A DNA stretch of 64,000 bases from Peribolospora baueri (lineage: Eukaryota), in the NCBI GenBank assembly GCA_029717555.1, contig JAMDHS010000001.1, positions 434,001-498,000 on the forward strand, written 5' to 3'. Positions 18,065 to 31,094 of the stretch are shown piece by piece (position 1 is the stretch's first letter; every line of letters begins with the position of its first letter). A model generated the notes under the pieces. The model searched no databases and was not told where the DNA came from. It saw only the letters and a list, made by a program, of their open reading frames with translations. A program made the position numbers and the translations under genes.

Positions 18065-20889
18065 CTACTGTTTTCGGAAGATTGCGTCGGCCGTCTTAGC
18101 CACGTCCACCATTTCAGCAGTGTCGTGAACTCTGATGACGTCGCAGCCACCGGCGATGGCGGCGGTACACGCGGCTGCCGTACCGAACGCTCGCTCCTTG
18201 GGCTCGCTCCTACCGGTCAAAGCGCCGAGGAAGCGTTTCCGAGACGCGCCGACCAGAATGGGGAAGGACGAGAGTGACGCATTGGGCGCGTCCGAATAGG
18301 ACGGCACGAGCTCGTCTGATGTGGGAAGTGATGCCGCCGAAACCGGCCCGTTGATTTTAGCCAGGTGCTTGAGCAAGTCGAGGTTACCGTGGACGTCCTT
18401 GGCGAAGCCGATGCCTGGGTCGAGAATAATGTTCCACCTCCGAACGCCAGCCTCCAAAGCCAGGCGAACGCGATCCTCGAGCTCTTTCTTGACTCCCCCG
18501 AGGACGTCGCCTCCCTCGTATTCAGACATCTGACTCATTGTCTTGGGATCACCACGCATGTGCATCAGCACATACGGCACGCCGCGACTAGCGACCAGTG
18601 GGATCATCCGCTCGTCGGCTGCTCCGCCGGAGACGTCATTGACGATGTCCGCGCCAGCATCCAGCGCCGCTTCGGCCACGGACGCACGGAACGTGTCGAC
18701 CGAGATGGGGACGGTCACGCCCTCGGCTCGGAGTTGTTGGATAAGCGGTACCACACGTCCAGCCTCTTCTTCTGGGCTGACGTCCGCTGCGTTGGGTCGC
18801 GTGCTCATACCGCCGATGTCCAAAACATCTGCACCTTCGTCCACCATCTTCCGCGCTGAAGCGACCGCGTCGGAGACTGCAAAGTGGTCTCCACCGTCGG
18901 AAAATGAGTCGGGCGTCGCATTGATAATGCTCATAACGAAGGTCTTCGACGACCAAGTCCAGAGTCGGCGCCCATCTTTGCCATCAACCGTTTCGGAGCT
19001 TACAGCTGAGGGCAGAGGTAGAACTCTGCGGACTTGCGGATCGACGTAGTCCGGCGAGTTCTGGATCTGAGAAAGAATCTGCGAGACGGTCTGTTTGAGC
19101 TTTGGATGCTCATGATGGGGCATAACGCTGATCAAGTGAAGGACGATGAGAAGATCAGTCTGAAGTTTACCACCCCCAGGAAGACATTAAACACTGACAA
19201 CGGCTGCCCACTCACTCCACCAGCGGCCTCAGGACGAACTCTCGTTCCTTAAGGCCGGCATGTGGGACGTTCAGTTCTGGTGACTGATCGATTACTTGTT
19301 GGTCGTAGAAGATGATGTCGAGGTCGACAACTCTGGGTCCCTTCTCCACCACGCCAATCTTAGACCGTCCGAGATCCTTTTCGATTGCCTGGCAAAGCCT
19401 CATCAGTTCGAAGGGACCAAGGGAGGTCGTGATCTACAGAAGAAGAATCCGGTGAGCGCTCTGCTTGACATATGTCACTCCACGTTTAAAAAGCTCACCT
19501 TACAGACGGCGTTCAGGAACGTCGGCTGCTCCGTGACGTACATAGGAGCAGTTTCGTAGATGAAAGACGTGTCGACGACCTTACACCCTCGCTTCTCAAG
19601 CTCTTTACACGCGAGCTCCAGATTTCTTGCGCGGTCGCCCAAGTTCGAACCGAGGGCAATAGCGGCGATGTGCTTCTCCGTGGCTGAGTTAGTGACCTGT
19701 TCAGCCGTGGAGGTGGAAAAGTCTCGCCGTTGAGCGGCTGCCGGCGTTCTCTGCTCTCTTTCGAAGAAATCTCGGTCTCGCTTCACCTCGACGGCGGAGC
19801 TGCCGGCGAACATGAGCGCGCTCGGCTTGTCCACACGGATGGCTACGCGAGGGAGGCCTGAGCGCTGAATAGTGATTCTAGCGAGGGCGGTCGCGAGGGA
19901 CTCTACCGTTTGGTAAGAGGACGATTCCGCATACTTCGTAGTCCGGAAGGGTGTTCAGAGTTCCCCAGACAGAGGCCGTGAAGAAGACCCATTAGCGACA
20001 CGAATGCAGACACGGCAAGATCGACCTACTCCACGAGCTTACCTCCTGTACACCCTTCACGACGGACCTGACATCGTGCAAAGGCATTGCCCCACCCGTC
20101 AGGCGGGGCCACCACCTCAATCCTATCCTGACCATTTGCTTGTCTTCCCGTTCACAAGGGTTAACACCAAGAATAATCGGCAACTCCAAGTCCTTGACGA
20201 ACGCAATGTCCTCGGGTGCGTTTGGAGAATCGGCCGCGAGTTGGTGATGAGGAAGGCGGGGAGGTGCTTCAGGGGCTGTGGGGCTTGATGCGGCCAAGGA
20301 CTGACTAGAGACGACGTAGTCTTGCCCAGAGCGAACAATTTCTATCCCTGCTGCCGCTGCGCGGAGAAGGAGACGAGGCGCTTCTACTCGGAGTGTCACT
20401 ACGGGAGCGTGACATACAAAGACGCAGACCTCGGCTAGCCGTTCCTAGAGAAGAATATCATTTTTATAGGTCGATGACCCTTCCGGATGCGTCAGACTTG
20501 GGAGCTCGAATCTTCTCAAATTGCCTGAATCGTAGGACGCCGCCGCTCACCGCCAACTCGCTCAAGTTCTCGCACGCGCTCTCCGTCGCACACTTCTCCA
20601 GCTGCCTGCAGAGCACGCCGTAGTGAATGGAGTGGGGAAGATGGTCGGATCGACCGGCTTGGGCGACGTCGGTGTGGACGACGGCCGAGATGTGTACCGG
20701 CTGTGGCTGAATGCGGCCCCAGAGGTCAGGACCTACCAAGGCTCGGGCAACGAGGTCGTTTACGATGATCTACACGCGAATAGGGAGAGGGCGGGCAAAA
20801 GACCGTAAGTAGAGGGTCGGCGATGGATAGCCTCCGGTGAAGCGGGCTGTCTTCACCTTGTCAACGTAGGCCTCTTTTCCGTCCACCAT
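18065..20889 (-). CDS. FOL1: Trifunctional folate synthesis protein (2x DHNA, HPPK, DHPS; multi-exon)
   Basis: DK|IIVNDL..VGPDLW, ILGVNPCEREDKQ, IALGSNLGDR, GPRVVDLDIIFY, PHAGLKEREFVLRPL, INATPDSFSDGG, DPGIGFAK, GASRKRF, IRVHD. Confidence 0.95.
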
Positions 20890-24531: not shown

Positions 24532-27500
24532 CTACGGTCCCAAGTTCGCCTTCTTGCTGAGCTGATCCGCCAGCTCGGCGACCTCCTTTTTGAGACTCTG
24601 CAAAGTGAGCACCTCGGACTGCAGATTCGCGCCCGTCTCGGCATGGTCGACTCCGCCGTCGGCCTTCTGGGTCGTCTTGAGGTCGCGCACTTTCTCGCCT
24701 TGCGCTTTGATCTGGAATGGCAGAAGCGGGGACGAAGGAAGAGATCAGTGAAAAGGTTGGTTGCGCTCTCAAAGGTTCAAACCATACAGCACGAGAAAGC
24801 GATATGACACTCACCTTCGCTTCGAGCGCCACCAGCTCGGGGAACTGCGCGCGGAGCGCCTCCATGGCCTTTTCGTTATCCCCCGCCGCCTTCTTAGCTG
24901 CCTCCTTGGCCGCCTTCTGCGCCTTCTTCTTGCTCACGGGAGGCTTCTCCTCCCCGTCCCCGCTGGGTTTTTTGGGCGCGCCTCCGAACTTCTCCCTCCA
25001 CGTCTGCTCCATCTTTTCGTCGACCCTCTTAAAGAGGTACTCAGGCTTGCCGATCTTGTGTCCGGGCAAAAGGTCCACGCTGAAGCGTTCCGGAACCGCC
25101 CGCGCAGGAGCGTCGAGCTGCCGCAGGATGCCGTCACTGGTCGAAGGCATGAAGGGGTGGAAGACAGCGCTGAGCGCGTAGATGAGGTTGATGGCCTTCA
25201 GCACGACCGCGTCGCAGACGGCGCGGTTCGACGCGAAGAGTGTGTTGTCCAAGCGAGATTCTTGGAGGTACTGATTACCGCGCGCCGACAGAGACATGGC
25301 GATTGACAGTCCCTGACGGAGCTTGACCGCGTCCATCGTGTCGATGTACGAGGACAAGAGTTCGTTGACATCCTTTGCAAAAGCGTCATTTTCGGGCTGC
25401 TCCCCCGCGGGCACGTCCGCAGCTTCGGGCAGCACGCTGTCGTATTTCGCGACGACGAATTTTATGACCTGGACGGGACGGGGGGACCAAAGCCCGCATG
25501 TAAGCCTTCGGAGAGCCCTTCATGTTCACGCTTGGCTCAGGAGAGCTACTTACCCGGTTGACAAAGTTGCCAACGTTGTTCAACAGCTCCGCATTGTTCC
25601 TGGAAATGAAGTCCTTCCAGGCAAACTGACTATCGCTCGCTTCCGGTCGGTTGGCCATGAGATAGTACCGCCACACGCTCGGGGGCACGCCAGTCAGGGA
25701 GGGAGAGTTGCCGAAGACGCCAATATTTCGAGATTTGGAGAACTTTCCGCCCTCGTATTGGAGGTATTCTGTAGACACAGGGAAAGGACAATGGCGTGAG
25801 ATAGCTACCTCGGTGAGTGACGACCAAGTTCCCTAAACTGGCGAAGTTTACCTGTCGTGCTGATATGATGAAGCTTAGTCCACTTGTCGCCACAGCCGAT
25901 CAAGCAGGCGGGGAAGATTACGGAGTGAAAGCGCACATTGTCCTACAGTGGGCAGCCTCAATGAGATGATAGTGAGCGACGAGCGAGAAATAGAGACGAA
26001 GGCCAAGCCTCAGCACTCGTTGACATCGTGCTCACCTTGCCCATGAACTGATAGAGCTTCACGTTATCGGGATCTTTCCACCACTTTTCCCACTCGTCCG
26101 TGTAATTAGCCGTGATGCTGGGGTATCCGATGGGTGCATCAAACCAAACGTAGAGCACCTTCTCTTCCATGCCCTTGACAGGTACAGGCACGCCCCACTT
26201 AAGGTCCCTCGTGATGCTGAACGGCTTGAGACCCTCGCGGAACCAAGAGTCGGTGATCATTTTCCCATTCGCGGACCACTTGCCCTCCGCATAAGCTTGC
26301 TCTGCCCATTTCTCCGTCGGCGGCTGGAGGAGGTCCATGCGGAGGAACATGTGGAGAGAGTCGCGCTTGACCGGCGGGGTGCCATCCAGCTTACAGCGAG
26401 GCTTGACCAGGTCGACAGCGTCGAGGAGCTGCCCACATGAGTCGCACTGGTCTCCGCGAGCGTCCTTTGGGCAAATCAGAACAGCAAACACGTCTCGGTT
26501 AAGGATGCTGACCTTGTATGCGGTATGCAGAATGTGGGACTCACATCATAGCCACATTTCGGGCATGTACCCTCGACGTAACGATCGGCAAGGAATCTGC
26601 CGAAGAGACGGAAGTTTAGATGAGTGGCCCACTACGCCGAGTTACACATTTCGGAAGAGTTGGAAGGCTCACCTTCGGCAGCCCTCACACCACAGCTGCT
26701 GCATCGACCGCTCCTCGAGATAGCCGTTGTTGAGCAGCTGTAGGAAAATCTCCTGGGCAATCCTGGCGACGATGGACGAACGTGTGAATGTTCAAAAGAA
26801 CTTCTTTTTTGACACTCCCCTCCCTATCGTTCGTTCCTCTAATAGGACGTTGAAATGCACGGCTCCACTCACTCGGTCTGCTTCGGCGTGGTAGTCCTCC
26901 CAAAGTAATCGAATCCGATCTCGAACCATTCATAGACCTCCTTATGCAAAGCATTATATTTGTCGCACAAAGACTTTGGGTCCGTCTTTTCCTCCAATGC
27001 CTTGGTCTCCGTCGCCGTGCCATACTCGTCCGTGCCGCAGACGTAGAGAGTGCGGCGGTTCCGTGTGCGGCTGTAGCGGGCGTAGACGTCAGCGGAAAGG
27101 GTGGAGCCAATGATGTTGCCTGTTGAAAGAAAGGTGGGTTCCAGACACGGGAAAGAAGGTAGCGAGTAGGTGAAAGAGAGGAAAAATGACAGGTGGTCTC
27201 AGCTCAATGCAAACAAGCCAGCTGTAGGTGCAGGTGCAGAGGAGATCGGAGGAGGCGCATCCACAGACCAAGGTGAGGTACGTTGTTAACATAGCTAGAA
27301 AGCGCAAATACCAGTATATGGGAGGGATTCATCAGCATTGGTCTCCAAACGAATACGATATCGCCACCAAGCTGTCAAGAGACACTCACGGAAGGGCGGA
27401 GGTGATCAGCACATTCTTCTCGCCCTTTACGGGGAGACTTGAAGAAGCAATAGCACGTCCAACGACAAGGTCAGCGCCGGCTGCTCTCGCGGGGAACAAT

Positions 27501-27672
27501 TGCACTTTGTAGTAGGAAGTAGTGACGCTTCAGATCTTGGTCTCGATGGACTGGACGGCACTCACATGGGTCCCTTGGCCGCATCGTCGGTGGCCCTCAT
27601 GAGCACGCCCGGAGCATCTCGCACCTTCCTCGTTTCCGAGGGCGGCAAGACAACGGGGAAGGGCGAGGCCAT
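24532..27672 (-). CDS. MES1: Cytosolic methionyl-tRNA synthetase with C-terminal WHEP-like domain (multi-exon)
   Basis: [69 protein letters not shown] and C-terminal [12 protein letters not shown]. Confidence 0.96.
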
Positions 27673-28277
27673 GTTGAGGTATCGATGTACACCTGGGCTC
27701 TTTAACGTGGCGGCTGACGGCAACGGCGAGGGGGCAAGGATGGAAGGCGAGGACAGAGATCTGTCGAGCTCGTCCGCCGCCTGCTCGTGTATCCGATCCG
27801 AATTCGAAGGACTTGACTCGGTGCACGTGACTTGGCTTGGAACCACGTGCGGGGCTCTGCTGCAGCGAGTGTCCAAGGTGACCAGCGCTAGTGACGTTAA
27901 ATATTCTCTGATCCAAGAAACTGGATGCCTGACTCAGGCACAGCACCAGAGCCGATACAAACATCTGCGCTCGTTCGTCCTTTGAACAGACGTAGCGACG
28001 GACACTCCGCTTCGTTTTTTGTTCTGTCGCTCTTATCGCTCGCGCCGTCCATGCAAGACGGAATCGTCCACGGCGCCGTCGTTGCCGCACGGTATGCTGC
28101 GGCACTCCATGTACGCCGCAACCGCGCCCGGCGAGATAACCCGGCAACGGTGCTCGAGCGCACAGTGAAACGACCACGATCTCCAATCCGCGGCCGACCA
28201 AGGCCCTACTGCTCACCGGCGTGCTGCCCGTCACCGGCGTCTTTGTCTTCTGACGTCTGCTGATTTTACAGGGCGCC

Positions 28278-28922
28278 ATGACTCGCGTGCTTCTCACCGG
28301 ATTCGAGCCGTTTAACGGCGAGGGCGTCAACCCGTCTGAGCAAGCAGTCGCTGCCGTCGCCGCCAACCCACCGCCCGGTCTCGACATCGTTACTGCCCGG
28401 CTGAGCTGCACCTTCGGGCTTGCCCTCGATGAACTGCGTGCCGCCATCAACCAGACCGAGCCGGACCTGGTCATCTGTACCGGCCAGGCCGGTGGCCGCC
28501 CGAACGTGACGGTGGAGCGCGTCGCCGTCAACATCGACGATGCGCGCATCCCGGATAACGCCGGCCGCCAGCCTATCGACCAGCCGGTCGTCGAGGGTGG
28601 CCCGGCCGCATACTTTGCCGCCCTCCCCGTCAAGGCCTGCGTCGCAGCGGTGCGCGCCGCCGGGGTGCCTGCTTCTGTTTCTCAGACCGCAGGCACCTTC
28701 CTTTGCAACCACGTCTTCTACGGGCTGATGCACCTGATCGCGACCGAGCGTCCGACGCTGCGTGGCGGTTTCGTCCACATCCCGTACTCCCCTGAGCAGG
28801 TCCTCGACCGCGCTGCGCCCTCGCTCTCGATTACCCTCGCCGCTGATGCACTGCGCGCCATCGCCTCTACTGCGGCAGCAACCACTACAGACATCGTCAT
28901 GGTAGGCGGATCTACGCACTGA
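28278..28922 (+). CDS. pcp: Pyroglutamyl-peptidase I (peptidase C15), bacterial-type with an intronless core
   Basis: VLLTGFEPF..NPS, GQAGGR..VTVERVAVN.DDARIPDNAG.QPID, AGTFLCNHVFY, GGFVHIP. Catalytic triad E80/C143/H167 is intact. Confidence 0.95.
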   Translation: MTRVLLTGFEPFNGEGVNPSEQAVAAVAANPPPGLDIVTARLSCTFGLALDELRAAINQTEPDLVICTGQAGGRPNVTVERVAVNIDDARIPDNAGRQPIDQPVVEGGPAAYFAALPVKACVAAVRAAGVPASVSQTAGTFLCNHVFYGLMHLIATERPTLRGGFVHIPYSPEQVLDRAAPSLSITLAADALRAIASTAAATTTDIVMVGGSTH

Positions 28923-30223
28923 CACCATAGGCACATGGCTGGTCGTTAGCGGTTTTGGGTCGACCGACCATGACGACACCTTCATCGAGAACGTGGCGAT
29001 TACCTCGGGGTGCTCGACCTTGGGCTGGAGCCGCACGAGCCGATCCTGACGGACCGGATCTATGCGCTGAAGATGGATACCGTCGTTGCTACCAACGCGC
29101 AGCTGGAACGCGCCGTGACGCACCCGTCCTGGTCGTCCTGACCACCGTATACCTTGGCGAGGACGGAATGTGCGTGACTGGCGTCATCTCGCCCAAGCAG
29201 TCTATCGCGCCGAGCGCGTCAACATGTTTCCCGCCCAGGCCAAGCCCGTCGACAGGTGACCAGGCCCGGCAACCCATCTTTCTGACACGCTGGTCTTCCG
29301 ATTCCGTCCAAGAGGAGAGCGGCTCGGATAAGTCGGAAAAGTGATTGCCTTGCCTTCCCAAGCCGATATGTTGTCGGTCTTCCCACCACGAACGATTTGA
29401 AGGAAGACGAGGTTATAGATAGTATATTCCATTCTATTTCACAGTGTCATCATCACACATGGCCCCGCATTGTCGTGAACAATGTTGAAGAATAGCTTGC
29501 GCGCTCTTACTTCGACGGTCCCGTGGGACGGTCTTGGGAGACGATTGTCCTCGGCCGGAGAAACCTTTAAGACGGACGAGAATGAAGGACCGGAGGCGAG
29601 AACGAGCGACGCACAGTATCCTCCGTAATTTTTGTGTTTTTTTATCTATATTTTTTGTCAATACCAAGACGGTGAGAATCTACCAGCCATTGACGGCGAG
29701 TCATGTCAGCTTGACCTTCATGCAGAAAAGATCGACTTGCGAGATCTCAGAGAGAACCGTAAGCGACAATGAACTGATGAAGCATGACAGGGGGCTTCAG
29801 TGCGAAAAGAGATCGTCCGAGAGTTCGTGAGCTGGGTTGAATTGAGGACGACGTGGGCAAAGACCAGACTTTGATCGTTGCGCCAGCGAAGTCGGGCGAT
29901 AGACAATGGTATGGAGACGAGAAGGGACGTTGTTTTGCAAAGCGCGTTCGCAAAGTTGTCCATGGTAGTGTGGGAGGGGCTCGGCGTTATACAAAATCGG
30001 CATCCAGCGTAGCTTGGTAGGGGTGTCTGGCGCGGTGATGATCGCCGCCTACCCACCCGTCTGTTCTCTCCGCGTTGTGACCAGCTGCTTCGGTGACGGC
30101 AAGGGCACCGGGAGTCGAGTATCATGCATGACCTCCGTGGGGAGTCGTCCAGAGTAATCTAACTTGAATAGTAGATTTGGTGGGAAGGGAAGCTGACGCG
30201 GAGATCGTAACTTGGCGGTCCGG

Positions 30224-31094
30224 TCATTCCTCGTCATCGCTGTTCTCGTCAGGCCTTCTAAACACTACGCCCGCGCCTTCGCCCGCGCCACCAGCTAACT
30301 TCCTCCTCTTGGCCCCGCCGCCTCGGTCGTCCTCATTCTCCTCCCCCTCGCCATCGCCAGAAACGCCTGCCCCCGCAGCCTCCCTGACAGCCCTGACGGC
30401 GGCTTCTGGATCTTCCCCAGCCTTGAGCGCCTTGGCCCTCGCCTGGGCCTCCTTCTTCTTCTGACGCTTCAGGCGGTTCTTCGATGTCCTGGCATCTGCC
30501 GCCGCTTCGCGCTCCGCTTGGGCGCGGGCGAAGGCGGTCTCTTGTTCTTCCTGGTGGCAGGGATAAACAAAAGGGGAAAAGGATGTGGCGAGAAAGACGA
30601 CAGTGTGAGCGGGACAAAAAAATGAAGTGGGTTAATGGATCGTTAAGGCTCCTCAAACCATTTCTGCCATCCTGTCCAGTCCCTATCCGGCACGCTTCGC
30701 TCGCCAGGCCGCCACTTCAACTCACCTTCTTGGCCTGCTCTTCCATCAAACGCAGCCTCTCATACTCCCTCCTCCTGGCGTGCTTGTAAACGTGAAACTC
30801 GCCGGACCCGGCACCGGCGCTGGACCCACTGACGTTCTTCATCATCTCCCGCGGAGGGCGAATGGTCTTTTCCTTGGGCGGCTTGGGCAAGTGGATCTGT
30901 CTATCCGGGCGGGCAAGGAGCCTGGCTACCTGAGCGGCTTGGTAGTCGCGCGCCGTTTGGGCATGTCGCGTGGAGGGGAGGCGAGGGGAAGGGGAGGCGG
31001 AGGCGGAGGCGGAGGGCGTATTGGAGTCGGAGGTCGACCCAGTGGCAGGGACGGGTGATCGACGCGCGGGGGAAGAGGGCGATGGAGAAGCCAT
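30224..31094 (-). CDS. PRKR-interacting protein 1-like (DUF1168) spliceosome-associated protein
   Basis: PREMMKNVSGSSAGAGSGEFHVYKHARRREYERL; one intron; second exon RTSKNRLKRQKKK ending ..NSDDEE-stop. Confidence 0.9.

Follow-up and report, generated by a model that had tools for sequence, protein, structure and literature searches.

A Streptomycetaceae-type pyroglutamyl-peptidase gene between decayed remnants of its donor neighbours in a basidiomycete chromosome

The 64,000-nucleotide stretch of DNA analysed here (the window) contains an island of Streptomycetaceae DNA, about 1.1 kb long and corresponding to 1.2-1.3 kb in the donor, in which an intact pyroglutamyl-peptidase I gene (pcp) lies between broken pieces of the genes that neighbour it in bacteria. 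The same island is present in a second organism, and pcp has been conserved while its flanks have decayed. It is probable that a fragment of an operon from Streptomycetaceae came to lie beside a methionyl-tRNA synthetase (MetRS) gene, that only pcp was kept by selection, and that this gene encodes a working pyroglutamyl peptidase (Pcp). Alignment identifies both flanks of pcp as remnants of donor neighbours, which were missed in the first reading of the locus. The features discussed below are as follows, G016 being the bacterial genome used for comparison.

24532..27672, minus strand: methionyl-tRNA synthetase-like host gene (10 introns, 712 codons, GC3 0.76), head-to-head with pcp
~28038..28253, plus strand: decayed 3' end of a DUF979 gene (family PF06166), left edge between 28038 and 28065, with the same TTC-TGA stop as the donor
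28092..28271, plus strand: candidate 180-nt 5'-UTR intron (GTATGC ... CTGAC/CTGAT ... TACAG), from the DUF979 remnant and the spacer
28254..28277, plus strand: spacer before the pcp start codon, ending GCC-ATG where G016 has the purine-rich GGAG-ATG
28278..28922, plus strand: pcp, pyroglutamyl-peptidase I (C15), 214 aa, intact, Streptomycetaceae-derived
28935..29137, plus strand: decayed 5' end of a 5-oxoprolinase (hydantoinase/oxoprolinase) gene, with a stop at codon 5 and four gaps
30295..31094, minus strand: DUF1168/PRKRIP1-like host gene (PF06658, E 8e-28), convergent with pcp; the lower coordinate is approximate

Translation of 28278-28922 (+) gives an unbroken 214-aa reading frame that ends in GGSTH followed by a stop codon. 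In family profile scans, the product matches TIGR00504 (262.3 bits, cut-off 201.75) and PRK13197 (271.8 bits, cut-off 199) over their full length and scores 231.6 bits against PF01470 (cut-off 22.7). The solved Pcp chains 4gxh, 3rnz, and 1aug align to it end to end (E 1e-72 to 5e-67), and these matches point to a Pcp fold; a single-sequence structure model reached a pLDDT of 42 and was left unused. The catalytic triad, E80, C143, and H167, is intact, is invariant across a 12-row alignment, and aligns to 3rnz with an offset of one, the triad of the Bacillus enzyme being presumably numbered Glu81/Cys144/His168. In the part of the source available to us, the C15 family triad is given as Glu, Cys, and His (PMC12445089). 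The coding region has no introns, the candidate intron being situated upstream of the ATG. The initial annotation had described an intronless 214-aa frame with an intact triad between intron-rich MetRS and PRKRIP1-like genes, and this description holds in both parts, as the minus-strand gene on one side has 10 introns and the gene on the other matches PF06658. The product is probably cytosolic, because it has no leader and the first conserved strand begins at the very N-terminus. An atlas search with the product returned C15 clusters and nothing else. In the 22.7-Mb genome there is one match only to the pcp protein and to PF01470; a PF06162 profile matched nothing in the genome, as was also the case for its controls, and an intron-split, divergent native C15 could escape it. 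The product thus resembles bacterial Pcp (MEROPS C15, clan CF) in full-length match, triad, length, and C-terminus, but its gene lies in a chromosome of a fungus and has third positions like those of the host, and the product is a candidate enzyme known from sequence.

Among 80 loci from bacteria and archaea, 62 have a gene bearing the C-terminal motif of DUF979 upstream of pcp. An nhmmer profile made from the last 450 nt of this upstream gene, with no pcp sequence included, has its best match in the 64-kb window at 28088-28247 (+; E 0.0017). Pairwise alignment of 28038-28254 with the DUF979 end scores 80.6, against 28.8 +/- 4.1 for shuffled sequences (maximum 42.4 among 200), and is the best of 850 window tiles. 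The signal exists at the DNA level only: the remnant escaped both PF06166 and a protein profile of DUF979, and translated searches with both flanks against the 80 loci gave nothing significant. In G016, whose Pcp matches P0003, the tree sister of the query, pcp is followed by the gene for a 1217-aa hydantoinase/oxoprolinase (PF05378/PF01968/PF02538), and 28935-29137 is a broken copy of the first 273 nt of that gene. The downstream flank has a local score of 138 against G016 (shuffles 29, maximum 44), and when it was compared with 12 further loci, 11 showed no signal, G016 being the exception. In blastn, the oxoprolinase remnant matches at 73-74% identity (E 6e-15 and 1e-5), and in a ranking of 850 tiles it takes first and second place. 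A blastn comparison of the entire 64-kb window with a 15-kb piece of G016 has its four strongest matches inside the island, in collinear order. Searching the whole genome with the oxoprolinase protein of G016 also recovers the remnant (64%, E 0.0014); any further G016-like DNA in the genome amounts to simple repeats and to brief matches within the host's oxoprolinase exons. The oxoprolinase N-terminal motif occurs in 2 of 175 fetched pcp loci, a set with some duplicates and uneven flank lengths, and an arrangement this rare suggests that the donor belonged to a narrow lineage. In another genome, G085, the oxoprolinase is present, with no pcp or DUF979 within the 8.5 kb examined.

The island therefore agrees with the Streptomycetaceae DUF969-DUF979-pcp(-5-oxoprolinase) locus (G016/L189) in the order and strand of the DUF979 end, pcp, and the oxoprolinase start. 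It differs in that pcp alone is whole, with roughly one quarter to one third left of DUF979 and less than one tenth of the oxoprolinase gene, both broken, and in that the spacer 3' of pcp is 27 nt shorter than in G016. DUF969/DUF979 have been tied to pyroglutamate transport in Bacillus in the accessible portion of one report (PMC6904757). No signal above shuffles was obtained beyond 29137 or before ~28038, and a search for terminal repeats or a target duplication yielded none that was convincing (an 8-nt match at most). Past the oxoprolinase remnant, at 29138-29300, the GC content is still ~0.59 and the DNA is single copy in the genome; this segment has no significant match to donor genes or to an inverted piece of pcp. 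Two other candidates were rejected. A conserved gene of ~510 aa, which follows pcp in 16 of the 80 loci, was considered for the downstream flank and was unsupported by nhmmer and hmmsearch, the true match being the G016 oxoprolinase; an inverted partial pcp copy at 29232-29270 ranked 8 of 1260 tiles and was dropped.

Similarity searches and trees place the gene in the same bacterial group. The 120 best homologues of the product are 67-76% identical to it. Organisms are named for 77 of them (the remaining 43 are without an organism), and 76 of these 77 are Streptomycetaceae-type, comprising Streptomyces, Streptantibioticus, Embleya, Kitasatospora, and their kin, with one labelled Stenotrophomonas; no eukaryotic name occurs among the 120. 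The Stenotrophomonas-labelled entry (P0020, a Streptomyces-type Pcp 72% identical to the query, in a cluster of 24) is probably a mislabelled record. The best bacterial donor match has 76-77% nucleotide identity, none closer being found, and in a search of metagenomes for fungal carriers the best of the 80 loci kept is 69% identical to the query. In a Bathyarchaeia genome bin (L079), pcp likewise has a DUF979-like gene before it, the arrangement seen in bacteria.

The tree comprised 95 rows (80 genome loci, 14 top proteins, and the query), was computed under LG+G4 with SH-aLRT as the sole support measure, and, like the other trees, contained no eukaryotic or fungal C15 sequence. The query falls inside Actinomycetota with an SH-aLRT of 98 and inside a subclade of 15 rows with 95; its sister (84) is P0003, a Streptomyces humicola protein by NCBI and UniRef naming; the supports for its nesting in the bacterial clade are 98, 96, and 95. 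Among 12 aligned rows, only the query and P0003 have E at position 21. The homology search and phylogeny proposed in the initial annotation were thus borne out as to nesting in Actinomycetota but not as to significance: in AU tests on 38 rows (2000 replicates, a low number, and time-limited searches), placement of the query outside Actinomycetota was unrejected (delta lnL 26.6, p 0.215), as was placement outside Streptomycetaceae (delta lnL 42.3, p 0.125). The Streptomyces-type origin that had been proposed is upheld by the best homologues, the tree placement, and the donor-gene remnants on both sides, and the proposal of horizontal transfer is likewise supported by similarity, by the tree, and most strongly by the remnants of donor neighbours on both flanks.

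The pcp locus is single copy in the genome. In four sequencing runs from two organisms and one study (X1 and X2, possibly of the source organism itself, and X3 and X4 of organism B), 26600-30961 is spanned in one contig each time, these being contigs and not raw reads. Coverage of both junctions, a check named at the outset, was accordingly obtained in the form of single contigs of the four runs that cross them, and not as reads. Organism B (X3, X4) has the same locus and junctions at ~97% identity, with ~110 substitutions and many small gaps relative to the window over 26600-30961. Shared synteny, a further check named at the outset, is seen in organism B, which has the island between the same joins, and the linkage of pcp to the host is reproducible in contigs from four runs, two organisms, and one study. 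Among the differences listed for organism B, the deletions (28090, 28139, and 29049) are all inside the remnants; depth is full over 28261-29015 and no deletion falls in the bins of the reading frame among the rows listed, a further 69 rows of substitutions and 21 of gaps being unlisted, which could include changes in the frame. Insertions of 61 and 63 letters occur in organism B at 29671-29673 and 30000-30003, in the stretch that separates the island from the DUF1168 gene.

The pattern of change is different in pcp and in its flanks. Relative to G016, pcp is identical at 487 of 645 nt (75.5%) with no gap in the 645 nt, as against 17 gaps in ~390 nt of remnants (13 in DUF979, a count that varies with alignment penalties, and 4 in oxoprolinase; Fisher p 3e-8). 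All 73 invariant columns are kept in the product. A or T is found at 19 of the 82 synonymous sites of pcp that are G or C in bacteria (bacterial mean 4.3%, maximum 11.9%), and 3 of 108 conserved residues are altered, which differs from the silent-site drift at p 1.4e-5. The GC3 of pcp is 0.77, that of host exons 0.73-0.80, and that of 21 bacterial copies 0.85-0.97. Overall nucleotide identity to G016 is a weaker point, being equal in pcp and the oxoprolinase remnant (75.5 and 75.4%); at second positions the two differ only a little (192/214 vs. 54/66, p 0.13). The gap counts, the retained residues, and the silent sites indicate that pcp has been under purifying selection after the transfer and that its silent sites have drifted to the host composition. 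The transfer is real and the gene probably functional, the latter being supported indirectly by these signs of purifying selection.

The start codons of pcp and the MetRS-like gene, which we take to be MetRS from its motifs, are 605 bp apart, and ~365 bp separate the MetRS-like start from the edge of the island. At 27806-27895, within this interval, are a TGACGT site and two CACGTG boxes (the latter at ~27825 and ~27844), presumably CRE-like and of the E-box type, respectively. This stretch is possibly a promoter shared by the two genes. In organism B, several substitutions occur at 27850-27889, just downstream of it. We hypothesize that 28092-28271 is a 5'-UTR intron of pcp. The fit is moderate, because host introns in the MetRS-like gene are 76-149 nt long and 7 of 10 start with GTGAG. 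An ATG at 28051, if transcribed, would give a 16-codon out-of-frame uORF ending on the pcp start.

The history that we favour is as follows. A piece of some 1.2-1.3 kb from an operon for 5-oxoproline (pyroglutamate) of Streptomycetaceae, with the end of DUF979, the whole of pcp, and the start of the oxoprolinase gene, entered between the MetRS and DUF1168 genes in an ancestor of the host, before its split from organism B. The origin and extent of the piece and its presence in both organisms are shown by the sequences; its insertion was presumably by non-homologous repair and without a mobile element. The two partial genes then decayed, while selection, to judge from the substitutions described above, kept pcp intact as its silent sites moved to the host composition. 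Transcription of pcp probably borrows the divergent MetRS promoter region. The product would most likely act in the cytosol as a cysteine omega-peptidase, taking pyroglutamate off the N-terminus of peptides; from what is known of these families, host aminopeptidases would finish the unblocked peptides, and the freed 5-oxoproline could be converted to glutamate by the host's own intron-containing oxoprolinase-type gene. Because the host gene could carry out this conversion, the bacterial oxoprolinase piece would have been redundant even if it had been whole on arrival. The exons of that gene (G000:C175:43764-46101 and G000:C583:55712-58709) are 37-55% identical to the G016 protein. An N-terminal half is on one of these contigs and a C-terminal half on the other; the gene may be split by nature, or two genes may be present.

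A more specific proposal, which we put forward tentatively and regard as doubtful, is that the DUF979 remnant was recycled into the expression signals of pcp, and that pcp is the only C15 of the host, replacing a lost native one. The Gly-Met codons of DUF979 would have become the splice donor GTATGC at 28092, its last codon and stop the branch-point-like CTGAC, and the bacterial spacer the acceptor TACAG at 28271 together with the GCC-ATG start context. If true, this would offer a base-by-base view, against a near donor, of a bacterial gene gaining an intron and promoter from a co-transferred neighbour.

Two other readings accept the transfer. The DNA might have come by an indirect route, through another fungus, a mobile element, or a cDNA copy of a polycistronic operon mRNA rather than chromosomal DNA; all three pieces run in the same direction, so that a single transcript could have held them, and the closest bacterial donor found is as distant as stated above. 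We consider this unlikely, since nothing beyond the 8-nt match suggests terminal repeats or a target duplication, the locus is single copy, and the 120 best homologues include no eukaryotic name. Or pcp might be a silent or recently relaxed relic, once selected and today unexpressed or useless, as the out-of-frame upstream ATG at 28051 could suggest. That is slightly less likely still, as the 645 nt are free of gaps and stops while both flanks are decayed, conserved residues are retained where silent sites have changed, and organism B has no deletion in the bins of the frame among the rows listed.

The readings that deny the transfer fare far worse. An assembly chimera or bacterial contamination, for which it may be said that the evidence comes from contigs of one study only, is very improbable: a contaminant would have intact neighbours and a GC3 of ~0.9, whereas broken neighbours and host GC3 are found here, and organism B, at a divergence of ~2.5%, has the same joins. 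That this second organism carries the locus in one contig makes contamination unlikely in itself. Vertical descent of a native fungal C15 peptidase could draw on the sole PF01470 match in the genome and on the non-significant AU test, but it is barely conceivable given 75% protein and 76% DNA identity to Streptomycetaceae together with operon remnants on both sides, and it is already refuted by those remnants, which cannot arise by vertical descent. Transfer of an operon fragment from Streptomycetaceae, with pcp retained by selection, remains our preferred reading.

Transfer of genes from bacteria to fungi is well documented; one survey, as far as its text was accessible, counts 20,093 prokaryote-derived genes in fungi, 36% of them actinobacterial (PMC11708051). 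The accessible rows of its supplement file 3 include at least nine fungal pyroglutamyl-peptidase entries from at least five events, at 29-58% identity; among the rows listed there is no Streptomyces best hit, and for one event the best hit is actinobacterial, in Micrococcaceae (PMC11708051). The present case shares the family and the bacterium-to-fungus direction with the transfers listed there, but it is much closer to its donor and keeps flanking donor DNA. An operon transfer into Wickerhamiella/Starmerella yeasts has also been described (bioRxiv 10.1101/399394; PMC13376923). In the portions of these sources available, the likeness is that multi-gene bacterial DNA in a fungal chromosome must gain eukaryotic expression; the difference is that several genes are functional there, whereas here a single gene stands between two dead fragments, in a basidiomycete and beside a housekeeping gene. 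Transfers of that type have at least two intact operon genes, and here both flanking genes are partial and broken. In the literature searched, which left most subscription papers outside, we found nothing on a Streptomyces-derived pcp in a basidiomycete or on the present locus. The enzyme is ordinary and pcp-to-fungus transfers are already in print; the fossil context is unusually complete. Transfers from bacteria to fungi are mostly argued from trees of distantly related proteins, whereas here donor neighbours survive as fossils on both sides; these establish which lineage was the donor and how far the insert extends, and they provide a neutral control for selection on pcp. The locus is also a compact case of how a foreign gene gains expression beside a housekeeping promoter, and is open to study as to whether pyroglutamate removal from peptides aids fungal nitrogen scavenging.

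The best named matches of the ribosomal S0 protein of the window are in Basidiomycota (69-78%), by which the host is identified as a basidiomycete without a close relative in the collection searched. Within the model of the MetRS-like gene, one 149-nt intron (27268-27120, -) starts with the unusual donor GTCTGT and one intron ends in AAG, so that the borders of the model may be slightly off there. Elsewhere in the window, at 18065-19123 (-), a long dihydropteroate synthase-like exon, which we take to be of the FOL1 type, runs for 352 codons without an intron.
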